This document shows positions 35,047 through 39,856 of a DNA stretch of 64,000 nucleotides, piece after piece. The notes below the pieces were generated by a model. It did not search any database. It was not told the origin of the DNA and saw nothing but the letters and a program-made list of their open reading frames with translations. Source of the DNA: Planctomycetota bacterium. GTDB taxonomy: Bacteria; Planctomycetota; UBA8108; SXIK01. The position numbers and the translations under genes are program-made. Every line of letters begins with the position of its first letter. Positions within the stretch are counted from its first letter, which is position 1. The DNA lies in assembly GCA_965223845.1 (NCBI GenBank), contig CBDCXR010000004.1, forward strand, positions 3,936,001-4,000,000, given 5' to 3'.

Positions 35047-35076
35047 TTGCGAGCTCCGCCCCGACAGCGAGATAAT
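35047..35076 (+). promoter_or_regulatory. Possible sigma-70 promoter for the small ORF and PafA-like gene
   Basis: TTGCGA-N18-GATAAT preceded by a conspicuously AT-rich tract (about 34975-35025). Confidence 0.45.
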
Positions 35077-35232
35077 CCCTTTATTCACTGTCGGAAGGCA
35101 ACTTGACGCCGACCGCGAGTGGACCCCGGCAGTGATGGGAGAGGGCTGTGAAAGCACCGAAATCGGGCCGCCGAAGCGAACCCGAGCGTGGTGCGTGTGG
35201 ATTCACGGCATGGGAACGCACGGGGAGCACCG

Positions 35233-35418
35233 ATGAAAGCTGACGCCGAAGCGAATCAGGCCTCGACTCCTTCGACTCCGTTCGACGCGGAGAGAACGGC
35301 GAAGAGAGCCCGGCAGGCGCTTATTCGTCGCGACTTGTACGCGCTTCTTTTGAGCGACGCCAAAGATCGAGCGAGTGACTATCCGGCCCGGTTTCAGGTC
35401 GGTAGCGGCGCCGAATAG
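35233..35418 (+). CDS. Small protein (61 aa) ending in GSGAE; candidate modifier tag
   Basis: GGGGAG RBS 5 nt before ATG 35233; MKADAEANQASTPSTPFD...DYPARFQVGSGAE*; lies upstream of the PafA-like gene. Confidence 0.45.
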   Translation: MKADAEANQASTPSTPFDAERTAKRARQALIRRDLYALLLSDAKDRASDYPARFQVGSGAE

Positions 35419-35634
35419 GACACACGCCTCCGCGCGGCGGTGGCGACGAGAGCGGGACCGGAACTCGAGGCCAGGGCGCTCGAGGCTCGGAACCGTCACC
35501 CTCTCGTGTTCTGCCCGGGAACGGCCGGGTCGACTTGATTTTGGCTCGCGCGCAAGAACGCCGGCGTCGGTCGAGCGGGAGCTACTTCCGCGGTCCGCTT
35601 CCTCTCGAAGATTCGAACGACGGCGGCCGCGACC

Positions 35635-37557
35635 ATGACCAGCTTCGAGCACGAATCGCCGCCCGGCGACGCCGCCGCCCGAGGCGAAGGCGCCCTCCCC
35701 GCCGGAGGGCCGCGTCCCGGGATCTTCGGTCTCGAGACGGAGTACGCGATCCTCTACGACGGCGACGACGAGCCGCCGTTCGAGACGATCGAAAAAGTCC
35801 TCTTCGAGGCACTCCTCAGCGGACGTAAGGCCGCTCAGTCCGGAGGGCTGAAGGGCGGATACTTCCTCGCGAACGGCGGCATGCTCCACCTCGAGGCGTA
35901 CATCCGCCGCCAGGCCGATACCCGAATACTCGAGCTGGCCACGCCCGAGTGTCGGAGCGCGATGGATCTCACCGTCTACTCGCGCGCATTCGACAACATC
36001 CTCGAGGAGACGAGCACGCGATCGCAGGTGGCGCTCGAAGCACTCGGGTACGACGGAAAGATCGTCTTCGCGAAGAACAATATGGATTCGCGCCAGATCG
36101 GTTACGGCTGTCACGAAAACTATCTCACCTACTACCGCCCGCCCCCGTCCGCGCTCTGGCTCTTCCTCCTCGCTACGCCGCTCCTTCTCCTCTCCCTGAT
36201 CCCCATCGTCATCAGCATCGTCTGCGGTCTCCTCCTCGTCTACGTTCCGCTGACGATCGGATTCTTGATCGCGCCGGTCGGACGCTTCTTCCGGTGGCTC
36301 TACGAGCGCGCGATCGAGACGCGCCCGTGGATCACCGAGAACGTGCGCGGCGGTCTCATCTTGTTTCTCACCCTCCTGCTTCTCCTCCCGGTGAAACTCT
36401 ACACGTGGATCCTCCGCCGGGTCGCGTTCGTGCCGCTCCTCGCGGAGCTCACTCCGTTCCTCGTCACGCGACAAGTCTTCGCGGGAACCGGCTACGTCAA
36501 CTTTCGCGAAGGGGTCTTCGAGCTTTCTCAGCGCCCCTTCCTCACGCGCTCCCTAGCCACGATCACGCTTCTCGGGCGGAAGAAGACAGTGTTCGACTTG
36601 AAGGGGTTTCTCTTCGATCCGTGGCAGCTCTTTCGACGAACGAAGAAGCTCACGGTGAGCGTCGGCGATTCGAATCTCTCGGACGTGCCGCTCTTCCTCA
36701 AGGTCGGAACGACTGCCCTCCTCGTCGAAATGCTCGAGCGCGGCGAGTCGTTTCGCGACCTGCGCCTCCGACGACCGATCCGAGCGCTGCGCGAAATCTC
36801 CCGCGGGGGACCGTGGAAGCAGGTACGCCTCGCCCGCGGCGAGCAGCTCTCGGCGATCGAGCTCCAGCGGGCCTACCTCCGTCGAGCGCAGGCGTTCTTC
36901 GCGGATCGAGCCGACGACAAGTCGGGTCACGACGAGATCCTGCGCCTCTGGGAAGAGACGCTCGATCGTCTCGCGGACCGGCCTCAACTGCTCGCCGACA
37001 CTCTCGATTGGGTGGCGAAGAAATCGCTCCTCGACCAGGCCGTCCTCGCGGTGGGAAACTGGAAGACATTCTTCGCGTGGGGACGAGTCCTGCGCGCCGC
37101 CGGGTCGGAGTGCGCCGCGTCCGCGCGAAGCGCGAGCGAGCTTCTTCGGCTCGCGCCGTGGTACCGACGGCGGAGAGCCCGCCGGCTTCTCGACTCGCAA
37201 GACCTCGAGCGCGGGGAGTTCACCGCCTACCGCGATCTCTATTTCCAGGCCCAGAACATCGACCTTCGCTTCCACGAGCTCGGCGCGTCCGAAGGCTATC
37301 AGCGTCAACTCGAGGACGCGGGCTTGATCGATCGCATGACTGACGACGAGACCGTGCTTCGCGCCGAAGACACTCCCCCGCCCGATACTCGGGCTCGCGT
37401 CCGCGGCTACTACATCGCCGAGAGCGCCAAGCCGGAGCACGTCATCGCCTCGTGGAACGAAATCGAGCTCCTCGATCCGCCGCGGCACGTCCCCCTCCCC
37501 GATCCGTTCTTTTCCCGCGTGCCGACGGATACTGACGACAGCGACCAGGCCGGCTGA
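35635..37557 (+). CDS. Pup-ligase/Dop (PafA-family) homologue with transmembrane insertion
   Basis: IFGLETEY, FLANGG, ELATPEC, KNNMDS...YGCHENY, PFLVTRQVFAGTG, FELSQR, VGDSNLS...LKVGTTAL, LDWVAK, IDLRFH, PPPDTRARVRG, SW, LPDPF. Confidence 0.9.
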   Translation: MTSFEHESPPGDAAARGEGALPAGGPRPGIFGLETEYAILYDGDDEPPFETIEKVLFEALLSGRKAAQSGGLKGGYFLANGGMLHLEAYIRRQADTRILELATPECRSAMDLTVYSRAFDNILEETSTRSQVALEALGYDGKIVFAKNNMDSRQIGYGCHENYLTYYRPPPSALWLFLLATPLLLLSLIPIVISIVCGLLLVYVPLTIGFLIAPVGRFFRWLYERAIETRPWITENVRGGLILFLTLLLLLPVKLYTWILRRVAFVPLLAELTPFLVTRQVFAGTGYVNFREGVFELSQRPFLTRSLATITLLGRKKTVFDLKGFLFDPWQLFRRTKKLTVSVGDSNLSDVPLFLKVGTTALLVEMLERGESFRDLRLRRPIRALREISRGGPWKQVRLARGEQLSAIELQRAYLRRAQAFFADRADDKSGHDEILRLWEETLDRLADRPQLLADTLDWVAKKSLLDQAVLAVGNWKTFFAWGRVLRAAGSECAASARSASELLRLAPWYRRRRARRLLDSQDLERGEFTAYRDLYFQAQNIDLRFHELGASEGYQRQLEDAGLIDRMTDDETVLRAEDTPPPDTRARVRGYYIAESAKPEHVIASWNEIELLDPPRHVPLPDPFFSRVPTDTDDSDQAG

Positions 37558-37639: not shown

Positions 37640-38263
37640 ATGGGAATGAAGAAGATCCTCGATCCGTACTCGCGCGCGTTCGCGATTCTCTCGCGCCACG
37701 CCGAACCGGCGTCTCGCCGGTTCGAGATTCTCACGATCCACAGTGTGCTGGTGGCGAACGAAGCGCGGACCATCGCCGAACGCTATCTCGACCGTCACCC
37801 CGATGCGGAGATCGATCTCGATTTCCTGCGCGAGGCGTCGCTCCTTCACGACATCGGCGTCGTGCGGTGTCACGCACCCGAGATCGGCTGCCAAGGGACG
37901 GAGCCCTACATTCGGCACGGCGTCGAGGGACGTCGCATTCTCGAGGCCGAAGGGCTGCCGCGACACGCCCTCATTTGCGAGCGGCACACTGGAAGCGGGA
38001 TTTCGGCCGCCGACGTGGTCGAGCAGGAACTCCCCCTCGAGCCGAAGGACTACCTTCCGCTCTCCCTCGAAGAGAAGATCATCTGCGTCGCGGACAAGTT
38101 TTACGGCAAGAAGCCGAACCGCCTCTGGCAGCGAAAGCCGCTCGAGAAAATCGAGGCGCAAATCTCATCGAAGGGCGACGGCCCGCGAATGCGCTGGGCG
38201 GAGCTTCGCGCGATGTTCCTGGACGGCATCAAGAGCGATGCCGCAGCGCCGTCGACGCCCTAA
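37640..38263 (+). CDS. HD (HDIG) domain phosphohydrolase
   Basis: HS..VA, LLHDIG, YIRHG, ERHTGSG, EEKIICVADKF. Confidence 0.9.
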   Translation: MGMKKILDPYSRAFAILSRHAEPASRRFEILTIHSVLVANEARTIAERYLDRHPDAEIDLDFLREASLLHDIGVVRCHAPEIGCQGTEPYIRHGVEGRRILEAEGLPRHALICERHTGSGISAADVVEQELPLEPKDYLPLSLEEKIICVADKFYGKKPNRLWQRKPLEKIEAQISSKGDGPRMRWAELRAMFLDGIKSDAAAPSTP

Positions 38264-38323: not shown

Positions 38324-39487
38324 TCACTCCGGCTCGGGCGGGTCTCCTCGGGGCTCCTCGACGCGATCGAGCGCAACTCGCTTCACGTGCCACCGCGTCG
38401 AGCCGAAGCGGTCCGTCTCGCCGACGAACGGGACGTGCACCGCGAGTGCGCGGGATTCGATCAGCCATCCCGATGGCAGTTCGAACGAGAGCGACTCTTC
38501 CGCCGCCCAGCCGTCCGGCCGCCGCCAAAGTTCGCCCCGAGCTATGACCTGAGTGACGCCGTCGACCTTCCGCGCCTTCTCGATCTTGTAGCGAATTCCG
38601 CGCAGATCGACCGTTCCATCGCGGCGCGGTCGCTCGAGTCCGGGGGTGACGATCCGCTCGACCGCTCCGCGAAGAAGCCATTCCACCTCCGGGAAGATCG
38701 CGAGCGGGAATGCCGCCGGGAGCCTCTCCTCGAGCGTGCGACGAAACCTCGGCAGCTCGGCCTGCAATCCGCGCGAGGAAAAGCGCACCTCGATGTCCTC
38801 GCCGACGAGAAACGGGAGGCTCGCCGCGACGAGCTGCGATTCGATCATACTCCGCGCGTGGGATGAGACGAGCGGGAGGCGCCACGCGCCGGCGAGGCGG
38901 GCGACGATGTTGGTCGCTGTCCGCCGGAGCTCGGGTGTGCGCGGATCGAGGGCCCACTCGCGGTCTCGATTCGCATCGTCGACGTAGCGCGACTGAAATC
39001 GCAGGATCCGCACCCGCGGTCGGCGCGCGTCCGCAAGATCGAGCTCGAGGACGAGCCCGACCTGCACCGGATCCCCCGCCACGCCTGCGCCCTGGGCGCG
39101 ATCGAGCGCGTCGCTAAGCGGATCGTCCTGCGGAATCCTCGTTCGCGTTCGGCGGACGAACCGGCGCCGCGCGGGCGGATGGACCCAGCCCCGCGAAAAT
39201 CGGACCTCGAAGCTCGCACGCTCCGCCCCGCGCGCGAGATCGATGCCGGCCGCTGGCGAGGGGCCGTCGCGCGACTGGTCGGCGGGCGCGTCGCCGTCGC
39301 CCGCCGGTGGTCCTTTCGGTTCCCGAGGACCCTCCTCCGGCGGCGGATCCTCTCCGCGCTCGATCTCTCCGCCGGACAGGCGCACCTGTCCGAATAGGGA
39401 GAAAAGGAGCGCCGCGGTGACGGCCATCTGCCAGGTGATGGCCGAACCGAACTCTACGCGTCTCCGTCTCGCGATCGGTTCGCTCAT
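38324..39487 (-). CDS. Hypothetical exported or membrane-anchored protein
   Basis: Start reassigned to ATG 39487 (GGAGG RBS); hydrophobic N-terminal segment and Pro-rich linker; no family recognised. Confidence 0.55.
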   Translation of the reverse strand: MSEPIARRRRVEFGSAITWQMAVTAALLFSLFGQVRLSGGEIERGEDPPPEEGPREPKGPPAGDGDAPADQSRDGPSPAAGIDLARGAERASFEVRFSRGWVHPPARRRFVRRTRTRIPQDDPLSDALDRAQGAGVAGDPVQVGLVLELDLADARRPRVRILRFQSRYVDDANRDREWALDPRTPELRRTATNIVARLAGAWRLPLVSSHARSMIESQLVAASLPFLVGEDIEVRFSSRGLQAELPRFRRTLEERLPAAFPLAIFPEVEWLLRGAVERIVTPGLERPRRDGTVDLRGIRYKIEKARKVDGVTQVIARGELWRRPDGWAAEESLSFELPSGWLIESRALAVHVPFVGETDRFGSTRWHVKRVALDRVEEPRGDPPEPE

Positions 39488-39856
39488 CGTCGCAATCCTC
39501 CACCGGACGGCGCTCTCGAATCCGCTCGATCGCGGAACCGGCGATCGACGTCCGAAGCGCGCCCCTATCTTCGGACCGTCGGAGGAGGAGTTCAACCAAC
39601 GCCGGGCGAGCAACGAGAAAGAATCCGGAACGAATCACCCGGATCGAGCGAAATCCGCACCCGCCCCGCGCACGGACACGAGTCGTAGAATCGACGAATG
39701 CGATCCGGACATCGATCAGAACCGCGCGCGCTGAGCCGCGCAGGCCGTAGATTGTTCTGGGATCCGCACCGAGCATTTCGGATGATGGCGGCGCCCGAAG
39801 GCGACTCGCGGGCGCGCGAAGTCGCAATCGAGAGCAGTGCTTCCATCGGTTGCCTG

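Follow-up and report, generated by a model that had tools for sequence, protein, structure and literature searches.

Among the ubiquitin-like tagging pathways of bacteria, pupylation alone has been studied, almost wholly in the Actinobacteria, where it is tied to the proteasome. In the Nitrospirae and other Gram-negative phyla, UBact/Pup-proteasome loci encode both proteasome subunits together with Mpa, Dop and PafA, and their enzymes are not known to carry a membrane insertion. Pup ligases with transmembrane insertions, each encoded beside a Pup gene, have been predicted computationally in Rhodopirellula baltica and Plesiocystis pacifica (Iyer, Burroughs and Aravind 2008, PMC2588565, in the sections of that article drawn upon here). 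A first-pass annotation of the DNA analysed in this work, a window of 64,000 nucleotides from a planctomycete assembly, had pointed to computational work that noted lone transmembrane PafA homologues in planctomycetes and deltaproteobacteria and proposed that they modify membrane proteins, and those sections bear this out. Judged against the same sections, the gene pair described here is a further member of the system predicted in 2008, one apparently never tested in the laboratory; no experimental study of the insertion clade was found in the literature searched, which leaves out most subscription journals. On the basis of sequence, structural models and analogy, we consider it likely that the pair constitutes a two-gene protein-tagging module, composed of a Pup-like modifier (35233-35418) and a membrane-held, ATP-dependent ligase of the PafA/Dop family (35635-37557). 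All features discussed below lie on the + strand.

The UBact loci resemble this one in placing a small, disordered modifier ending in Glu or Gln beside PafA/Dop homologues outside the Actinobacteria, and differ from it in that the present genome has no recognisable proteasome or Mpa and its enzyme carries a presumed membrane insertion. The likeness to the systems of Iyer et al., as characterised in the sections used, is closer, and includes a helical insertion just after core strand 4, a small modifier gene directly upstream, frequently left unannotated, whose product ends in Glu, the lack of linkage to proteasome genes, and a distribution over planctomycetes and myxobacteria. Relative to that same description there are also differences: the modifier ends in G-A-E rather than G-[EQ], the terminal Glu being shared and the penultimate Gly not; three of the four helices of the insertion are hydrophobic; and no conserved membrane-protein gene is linked to the pair, either at this locus or clade-wide.

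The reading frame at 35635..37557 is open throughout and its product of 640 aa is assigned, from Pfam, Foldseek and the predicted insertion anchor, as a membrane-insertion carboxylate-amine ligase of the PafA/Dop family. It matches the Pfam Pup_ligase model PF03136 at 274.9 bits (cut-off 25, E 1.7e-81), with residues 30-469 aligned to profile positions 2-357 of 441, which upholds the first-pass assignment of the enzyme to this family. Neither equivalog model claims it, the scores being 230.3 bits for PafA (TIGR03686, cut-off 551.3) and 182.9 bits for Dop (TIGR03688, cut-off 492.3). In Foldseek searches with the AF2 model (pLDDT 92.2, pTM 0.91), Dop 4b0r was matched with an E value of 2.2e-26 and a target-normalised TM of 0.83, and the PafA structures 4b0t and 4bjr with target-normalised TM of 0.72-0.74 (0.74 for 4bjr). 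With the actinobacterial PafA the enzyme shares the fold, the GhExE, HEN, TRQ and SQR motifs, the C-terminal domain that binds the modifier (retained by both alignment and Foldseek) and a modifier that has Glu as its last residue. It departs from PafA in having Glu for the catalytic Asp, Lys for an Arg, Thr for a His and two large insertions, in belonging to a genome without proteasome or Mpa, and in its position outside PafA plus Dop. Dop (4b0r, 7oxv, 7oyh) is its best match among solved proteins in both sequence and structure, yet Asp94, Arg227 and His241 of Dop are all replaced, no modifier ending in Gln was found that could be deamidated, and the stretch from GxExE to NG spans 48 residues, close to its length in the PafA group (43-44) and much shorter than in the Dop group (73-87), from which we conclude that the Dop loop is absent.

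The sections of Iyer et al. (2008, PMC2588565) used here list, as motifs of the superfamily, GhExE in strand 1, acidic residues in strands 2 and 3, [HQ]x[NH] in strand 4, an Arg in strand 5 with a further Arg in the preceding loop, and [QH]x4D in strand 6. As listed there, GLETE, E87, E100, H160-x-N162 and R300 are present in the ligase, whereas the strand-5 Arg and the strand-6 [QH] are altered conservatively, to Lys323 and to T340, respectively, with D345 of the T340-x4-D345 spacing kept. GLETEY (residues 32-37; 35728..35745), the metal/ATP motif, and GCHENY (residues 158-163; 36106..36123) are both intact, as the annotation had stated, with E34 and E36 found in 45 of 46 aligned relatives, H160, E161 and N162 also in 45, and Y163 in all 46. 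Between and beyond them lie FLANGG (77-82), LHLEAY (84-89), RILELATPEC (97-106), PFLVTRQ (274-280), ELSQRP (296-301), FDLKGFLFDP (320-329) and LDWVAKK (457-463). E100 is likewise present in 46/46 relatives, and the column of R300 holds Arg in 36 and Lys in 10.

The proposed exchange of the catalytic Asp for Glu is borne out by the MAFFT alignment, in which Glu87 (codon 35893..35895) faces the Asp of the YLD motif and is retained in 46/46 relatives. The HMMER pairwise alignment pairs Asp95, not Glu87, with Dop Asp94; a catalytic role for Asp95 is nevertheless less likely, because it occurs in only 31 of the 46 relatives. HMMER and MAFFT agree in placing Lys323 opposite Dop Arg227, described as the phosphate-holding Arg in the portion of PMC8599861 that we draw on, and Thr340 opposite Dop His241. 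The segment that the annotation had called a missing RDEPH block indeed lacks that sequence, but it is better described as remodelled, since N-T-R-D-E-P-H faces D-L-K-G-(FLF)-D-P-W in both alignments (DLKGFLFDP, residues 321-329; 36595..36621), with K323 in 46/46 and D321 in 45/46 relatives. The change from RRLH to KKLT (residues 337-340; 36643..36654) was also read correctly, although column 340 is variable (T in 21 of the 46, H in 13, S in 4 and A in 3), and the exchange of His for Thr therefore belongs to the sub-clade rather than to the whole clade. With substitutions at the catalytic Asp and the strand-5 Arg, and in this sub-clade at the strand-6 His as well, a chemistry identical to that of PafA is not assured.

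The two insertions are the most conspicuous departures from Dop and PafA. HMMER aligns residues 94-166 with Dop 93-161 and residues 261-467 with Dop 162-371, leaving about 94 residues unmatched between GCHENY and PFLVTRQ. This first insertion, roughly 100 residues long (helices at residues 171-263; 36145..36423), which is absent from Dop and PafA, contains Kyte-Doolittle windows above 1.6 at about residues 170-219 (peak 2.95) and 233-261 (peak 2.16), and is modelled by AF2 at high pLDDT as four consecutive helices (171-187, 189-211, 213-229 and 231-263). It had been credited with two or three hydrophobic helices; three hydrophobic stretches are indeed found, but helix 213-229 is charged and amphipathic, and the insertion consequently comprises three hydrophobic stretches and one amphipathic helix, four in total, which gives no obvious even count of membrane crossings. 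We presume from the modelled helices that it serves as a membrane anchor. Across the homologues a window-based count gives 1-8 transmembrane segments, mostly 2-6, but the method is too crude for this range to be relied on. The second insertion, reported by the annotation after LDWVAK, is present as well: residues 468-538 (approximately; 37036..37248), following LDWVAKK, stand opposite Dop 372-385, an excess of about 57 residues, and AF2 places helices around it at residues 476-545.

A genome scan returned 212 relatives, mostly from Planctomycetota and Myxococcota. Of the 156 homologues that could be scored, 96 carry an insertion of 86-165 aa. Glu occupies the position of the catalytic Asp in 91/96 insert-bearing homologues as opposed to 1/60 without the insert, 54 of which have Asp, and RDEPH occurs in none of the 96 as opposed to 42 of the 60. 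The Glu-for-Asp exchange and the loss of RDEPH thus travel with the insertion across the clade. In a quick IQ-TREE analysis of 64 rows, all 31 insert-bearing rows fell on one side of a branch with SH-aLRT of 100 and the 33 insert-less rows, which contain the PafA and Dop groups, on the other; by this tree the insert-bearing clade lies outside PafA plus Dop. The sub-clade to which the window belongs is 26-33% identical to most of the Pirellulaceae and myxobacterial members.

Directly upstream of the ligase lies a small ORF (35188..35418) that would encode 76 aa from the GTG at 35188 or, more likely, 61 aa from the ATG at 35233, on which the Met column of a 47-sequence alignment falls. Its product, which is probably disordered, terminates in ...DYPARFQVGSGAE, ends GSGAE, and has Glu as its last residue. 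Three columns of that alignment (D45, G62 and E64) never vary, and Y53 is conserved to 90% or more. The signature [YF]x8-10-G[GA]E recurs in a small ORF directly upstream of the ligase gene in 62 of 81 sources, or 63 with one ending in DGE, whereas endings of the G[GA]E type occur in 4 of approximately 16,100 background ORFs. All of the modifiers found end in Glu and none in Gln, and RGAE closes 7 of the 8 in the window's own sub-clade (L004-L011). Among the 18 sources without such an ORF, Rhodopirellula/Rubripirellula-type loci predominate, and in three the sequence upstream is short or absent. Profile comparison of the modifier family with true Pup by hhalign gave a moderate probability of 64% (E 6.5e-5) over 38 columns with the C-termini in register. 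The Pfam Pup model PF05639 matched 0 of 23 small ORFs at E values up to 10, two true Pups run as controls scoring 5.5e-23 and 4e-23, and the NCBIfam Pup and UBact models likewise matched none of the 23. A sigma-70-like promoter match (TTGCGA, 18 nt, GATAAT; 35047..35076), a match to consensus only, lies upstream of the small ORF and is the one site found between 34800 and 38400, against 0.2 expected from shuffled sequence; it is possible that it marks the start of a transcript covering tag, ligase and perhaps the HD gene.

When the modifier was modelled together with the ligase, three runs gave ipSAE values of 0.85, 0.85 and 0.84, compared with 0.30 for the best of three controls, and passed a mark that 58 of 80 solved complexes attain, as do 2 of 110 mismatched pairs. 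Contacts agreed between runs to at least 76% and the partner pLDDT was at least 67, although the model may here have reproduced PafA-Pup and Dop-Pup structures that were already solved. In the complex, modifier residues 31-62 touch ligase residues 38-41, 95-98 and 146-157, in the active-site sheet, and 464-564; the second insertion borders the predicted modifier groove, with contacts at 464-472, 491-495 and 534-545. Taken together, the conserved placement, the alignment with Pup and the complex model indicate that the small protein is the Pup-like tag of this enzyme, and the partnership with a small upstream ORF that the annotation had envisaged holds well. Its framing of the locus as one without Pup was misleading, even though the tag fails the Pfam Pup model.

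The annotation had also reported no proteasome, Mpa or second paralogue in the window, and this extends to the assembly as a whole (7.93 Mb, 91.7% complete), in which the ligase is the only member of the Pup_ligase family. A genome search for proteasome and Pup genes, likewise suggested at that stage, gave no match to PF00227 (proteasome/HslV) in the assembly and, with the Pup profile, a best E value of 0.955 at an unrelated place; the best score of the Mpa model was 139 bits, below its cut-off of 505. Nor did PF00227 match anything in 21 genomes from this order, of which 10 encode the ligase. Within the window the pair is flanked by HemF and TrpRS upstream and by an HD protein downstream. The HD hydrolase, put forward earlier as a partner, must be withdrawn, its homologue lying downstream of the ligase in just 1 of 80 related loci by tblastn, that of the closest relative (L006), and TrpRS and HemF reflect lineage synteny only (L006, L009 and L011). 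All-against-all clustering of neighbouring ORFs from 68 loci yielded no membrane-protein neighbour, and no family other than the small ORF, that the clade has in common; the clusters with the most members (9 loci) come from one Rhodopirellula-type group. PADLOC defence models did not match the ligase, the modifier, the HD protein or a 429-aa neighbour.

The use of ATP, a reaction running towards ligation, the kind of acceptor and the topology in the membrane are inferred by analogy with the described enzymes, and it is reasonable to postulate the following course. The four-helix insertion, emerging directly after core strand 4, would hold the ligase at the cytoplasmic face of the membrane, while the conserved C-terminal half of the modifier would dock as helices in the groove of the C-terminal domain, enlarged by the second insertion, such that its terminal Glu could reach the active site. 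There, with metals held by Glu34, Glu36, Glu100, His160 and Asn162 and phosphate by Arg300 and Lys323, ATP would phosphorylate the gamma-carboxylate of that Glu, Glu87 would serve as the base towards the amine that enters, and the product would be an isopeptide bond to a lysine on a protein in or near the membrane. As all of the modifiers end in Glu rather than Gln, no deamidase would be needed, which fits the single paralogue. Given a genome without 20S proteasome, HslV or Mpa, the tag would have to serve in regulation or bring targets to some other machine, for which membrane-bound FtsH may be offered as a guess.

Other readings of the pair must be weighed against this one. That the protein is a Dop-like hydrolase or amidase, or that it binds the small protein with its catalysis altered, draws on the closer sequence match to Dop than to PafA among solved structures (1.3e-43 and 7.5e-33), on the three altered catalytic-site positions, and on the equal distance of planctomycete homologues from PafA and Dop given in the portion of PMC7947786 used here. 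However, modifiers that all end in Glu leave nothing to deamidate, a single paralogue leaves no ligase to make conjugates for a depupylase, the NCBIfam PafA model outscores the Dop model (230 vs 183 bits), and the Dop loop is lacking; the conservation of Glu87, Glu100 and Lys323 in 46/46 relatives, with near-invariant metal ligands, further argues for an active enzyme. We regard this reading as unlikely. A gamma-glutamyl ligase of the GCS2/YbdK kind that acts on small molecules at the membrane, beside an unrelated or non-coding ORF, seems very unlikely: YbdK/GCS2 proteins are the next-best structural neighbours (1r8g, E 4.4e-4) and the small ORF matches no database family, but the conservation and position of that ORF are far beyond chance, its C-terminal Glu is invariant, the complex model brings its tail to the active site, and the Pup-binding domain of PafA/Dop is kept.

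A further reading retains the chemistry and changes the acceptor, the modifier's Glu being joined to an amine lipid (phosphatidylethanolamine or an ornithine lipid) so as to anchor the small protein in a manner akin to Atg8 lipidation. The placement of the membrane insertion directly beside an active-site strand speaks for it, as do acceptor-side residues that are unlike those of the insert-less homologues and track the insertion (Glu in 91/96; RDEPH in 0/96 vs 42/60) and the lack, the modifier aside, of any conserved neighbour gene as candidate for a dedicated protein target. Yet the exchanges are conservative ones that would also suit lysine as acceptor, the loci show no linked lipid-related gene, and enzymes of the PafA family are known only to modify protein lysines, and we hold a lipid acceptor to be very doubtful. 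The first-pass suggestions of an amidase role or of gamma-glutamylation of lipids found no support. The tagging of protein lysines by a membrane-held ligase is the reading that we prefer.

Compared with what the sections of the 2008 article used here predict, this analysis adds the association of Glu-for-Asp and the loss of RDEPH with the insertion, the restriction of the modifiers to a terminal Glu, the incidental nature of the HD neighbour, and a complex model that passes its mark. It is conceivable, if quite unlikely in our estimation, that the insertion clade is an older and separate conjugation system rather than a membrane-tethered copy of PafA, with a different acceptor served through an amide link to an amine lipid (or with membrane proteins marked for extraction by FtsH); were a Pup-like protein indeed linked to an amine lipid, bacteria would have an equivalent of Atg8/LC3 lipidation. 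As the clade is widespread, by prediction membrane-bound, independent of the proteasome and placed outside PafA plus Dop, it could show Pup-type tagging in a setting without a proteasome, and could also show what the ancestral enzyme looked like.

The 640-codon open frame at 35635-37557 (+), in a window of 63-70% GC, matches Pfam Pup_ligase (PF03136) with an E-value of 1.7e-81 in a profile search, and falls well under the NCBIfam equivalog cut-offs for both PafA (230.3 bits vs 551.3) and Dop (182.9 bits vs 492.3). Its matches among solved structures are Dop and PafA chains only (5 distinct sequences), the best by sequence being Dop 4b0r (1.3e-43) and PafA 4b0t (7.5e-33). In the HMMER alignment, ligase residues 94-166 pair with Dop 93-161 and residues 261-467 with Dop 162-371, which leaves approximately 94 residues after GCHENY with no Dop counterpart (insertion 1); residues 468-538 lie opposite Dop 372-385 only, giving approximately 57 extra residues after LDWVAKK (insertion 2). 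The alignment thus breaks at precisely the points, after GCHENY and LDWVAK, where the first-pass annotation had placed its inserts. A confident AlphaFold2 model (pLDDT 92.2, pTM 0.91; input alignment of 46 relatives) superposes upon Dop 4b0r (E 2.2e-26, TM 0.83) and PafA 4bjr (TM 0.74), the next structural neighbor being YbdK/GCS2. Hydropathy windows exceed 1.6 at residues ~170-219 and 233-261, and insertion 1 is modeled as four successive helices (171-187, 189-211, 213-229 and 231-263). The earlier description was of two to three hydrophobic helices; the model has three hydrophobic helices and an amphipathic, Arg/Glu-rich fourth (213-229).

The active site is conserved in outline and altered in detail. 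GLETEY (32-37) and GCHENY (158-163) are unaltered, as had been claimed, and 45 of the 46 sequences in the family alignment retain E34, E36, H160, E161 and N162. By MAFFT, Glu87 (LHLE) aligns with the YLD-motif Asp of PafA and Dop, followed by a short additional loop bearing Asp95-Thr96 and then by ILE where those enzymes have HPE; the Asp to Glu substitution read from LHLEAY...ILE is thereby upheld, and E87, E100 and K323 are invariant in the alignment. HMMER and MAFFT concordantly place Lys323 (DLKG) at Dop Arg227 and Thr340 (KKLT) at Dop His241, the latter being the change of RRLH to KKLT that had been noted. The RDEPH block, previously described as missing, is indeed absent in its canonical form, but has been remodeled around DLKG and not deleted. 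According to PMC8599861, Asp94 of Dop is the water activator, with Arg227 and His241 holding phosphate. Other columns vary: column 300 is R in 36 sequences and K in 10, D95 is kept in just 31, and column 340 is T in 21, H in 13, S in 4 and A in 3. Given these counts, the Asp to Glu and Arg to Lys changes are fixed in the clade, and His to Thr is particular to the window's sub-clade.

These changes go along with the insertion across homologues. Both motifs flanking the insertion site could be scored in 156 of 260 homologues; where 86-165 residues are inserted (n=96), the YLD position is Glu in 91 and unassigned in 5, and the R[DE]E[PS] block is found in none, with D[LIVM]K instead in 63. Where there is no insertion (n=60), the position is Asp in 54, Glu in 1 and unassigned in 5, and the block occurs in 42. 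In a quick IQ-TREE analysis of 64 rows, a branch with SH-aLRT 100 separates all 31 insert-bearing proteins from the 33 insert-less rows, which include the PafA and Dop groups. This split agrees with PMC7947786 (2020), in which single-copy planctomycete homologues, 29-31% identical to PafA and Dop alike, served as the outgroup. The family also includes two fused forms, P0102 (682 aa; Pup_ligase with sigma-70 regions 2 and 4, PF04542 and PF08281) and P0116 (888 aa; Pup_ligase with PF17871).

The ORF upstream of the ligase (35188-35418, +; 76 codons, or 61 aa from the ATG at 35233), which ends ...DYPARFQVGSGAE, is probably its Pup-like tag. Scanning genomes with the alignment of the family gave 212 relatives, and the best 80 loci, mainly of Planctomycetota and Myxococcota plus a handful from other phyla, were examined alongside the window. 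Of these 81 sources, 56 have an ORF on the plus strand that ends G-[GA]-E, with its stop no more than 900 nt upstream of the ligase GxExE, and a relaxed search of the other 25 added six ending GGE and one ending DGE. Among 16,180 stop-to-stop ORFs of at least 30 codons from the same sequences, 67 end G[GA]E, 63 of them with the signature [YF]x8-10-G[GA]E, leaving 4 background cases. With pairing in 63 of 81 sources vs these 4, and with the complex model described below, the suggestion that the small ORF is a partner of the ligase holds well. No modifier ORF found upstream of a ligase ends in Gln, and in 47 that were aligned D45, G62 and E64 are invariant and Y53 is at least 90% conserved. None of 23 modifier ORFs matched the Pfam or NCBIfam Pup models, to which two true Pups beside actinobacterial Dop genes, as positive controls, scored ~5e-23; a profile-profile comparison of the clade ORFs with 24 true Pups (38 columns, probability 64%, E 6.5e-5, C-termini in register) is suggestive of likeness, not conclusive.

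Such an ORF was not found in 18 of the 81 sources, three of which have little or no upstream sequence, and the bulk of the remainder are Rhodopirellula/Rubripirellula-type loci. Loci of that type without a G[GA]E ORF even in the relaxed search are L032, L045, L048, L049, L052, L054, L062, L067, L070 and L074. Nine loci of the group instead have in common a pair of plus-strand ORFs upstream, ~550 aa and 159 aa long; a Pup gene is reported for Rhodopirellula in Iyer 2008 (PMC2588565). In the window, 216 nt without a start codon (35419-35634) separate the modifier stop from the ligase ATG, and we found no terminator-like site in this gap; a single sigma-70-like site upstream of the small ORF (35047-35076) hints weakly at a promoter. 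A look-up of RNA runs for the region returned none. At the majority of distant loci, the modifier stop lies 20-50 nt from the GxExE motif.

Prediction of a complex between the ligase and the last 64 residues of the upstream ORF gave ipSAE values of 0.85, 0.85 and 0.84 in three runs vs 0.30 for the best control. Solved complexes attain this mark in 58 of 80 cases and mismatched pairs in 2 of 110, counts that are approximate since custom alignments were used. At least 76% of contacts agree between runs, and the partner pLDDT does not fall below 67. Residues 31-62 of the modifier, its conserved half, are predicted to lie along ligase 464-564 and to touch the active-site sheet at 38-41, 95-98 and 146-157. 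Because PafA-Pup and Dop-Pup complexes have been solved, this pass may partly mirror known structures.

The absence of prcA/B, ARC/Mpa and a second paralogue, noted initially for the window, extends to the assembly (7.93 Mb, 4 contigs, 91.7% complete). At that completeness, the ligase is its one Pup_ligase gene and PF00227 (proteasome/HslV) has no match; the best AAA protein scores 139 bits vs a cut-off of 505 for Mpa, and no Pfam-type Pup was found (best E 0.955). In a sample of 41 genomes, the window's own and 40 relatives, several of them incomplete, a Pup_ligase gene occurs in 14, among them the four of the window's family. The 21 genomes of the window's order (its own plus 20, several incomplete) gave no PF00227 match, so that neither the 20S proteasome nor HslV was found in them; 8 of 20 more distant genomes gave one match each. 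Another genome of the family, G002, has a second Pup_ligase match (G002:C901:1124-2263; 342.6 bits, profile 72-440) in an 876-codon open frame. It fits the canonical profile far better than proteins of the membrane type do; the assembly is 80% complete, and the match may represent a paralogue, either canonical or fused, or else a contaminant.

Other neighbors lie outside the proposed system. The HD gene (37640-38263, +; Pfam HD 2.4e-12) begins 82 nt after the ligase, and its product is TIGR00295-like (74.5 bits, under the cut-off of 172). Its proposed partnership fails, as an HD homologue follows the ligase in just 1 of 80 loci, that of the closest relative, L006 (53% identity). TrpRS and HemF, upstream, were likewise rejected as members, recurring in three close relatives only, and ORF clustering over 68 loci gave no family besides the modifier common across the clade. 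Facing the HD gene in convergent orientation is a 429-aa ORF (38324-39613, -) that matches nothing in Pfam, NCBIfam or PADLOC, nor by tblastn in the 80 related loci; its translation has a hydrophobic stretch near the N-terminus. PADLOC has no model for the four proteins tried (ligase, modifier, HD protein and 429-aa ORF).

We consider it likely that ligase and modifier form a self-contained tagging module. We observed homology, fold, conservation, gene pairing and a complex in silico, and infer the catalysis, acceptor and topology of the ligase. The Glu-ended modifier would dock on the C-terminal domain, enlarged by insertion 2, and ATP would phosphorylate its terminal Glu in an active site whose metal and phosphate ligands are all either retained or conservatively replaced; the phosphorylated Glu would then be coupled to an amine, most likely that of a protein Lys at the membrane, to which insertion 1 would tether the ligase. 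As the modifier ends in Glu and there is a single paralogue, a deamidase would be unnecessary. On the model, the halves of the catalytic domain must share one membrane side, yet no more than three of the four insertion 1 helices are hydrophobic.

Three other readings bear upon this scheme. That the protein is a hydrolase, or an altered non-ligase, we regard as improbable; that the acceptor is a lipid instead of a protein seems slightly more improbable still, and we give very little credence to a small-molecule ligase to which the upstream ORF is irrelevant.

If ligase and modifier do form a tagging module, its kind was already described from sequence in 2008, and the window's gene pair is one more member. 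In PMC2588565, Iyer, Burroughs and Aravind describe Pup ligases of Rhodopirellula and Plesiocystis with four transmembrane segments directly after core strand 4, unlinked to proteasome genes and adjoined by a small, often unannotated Pup gene, and propose pupylation of membrane-associated proteins; this matches the computational report mentioned in the first-pass annotation. In contrast to their four transmembrane segments, the window's ligase has four helices of which three are hydrophobic. Experimental work on the clade was not found in the literature searched, mostly outside subscription journals. As such, the gene pair is a reminder of a widespread, proteasome-free Pup-type system, known so far by sequence prediction.
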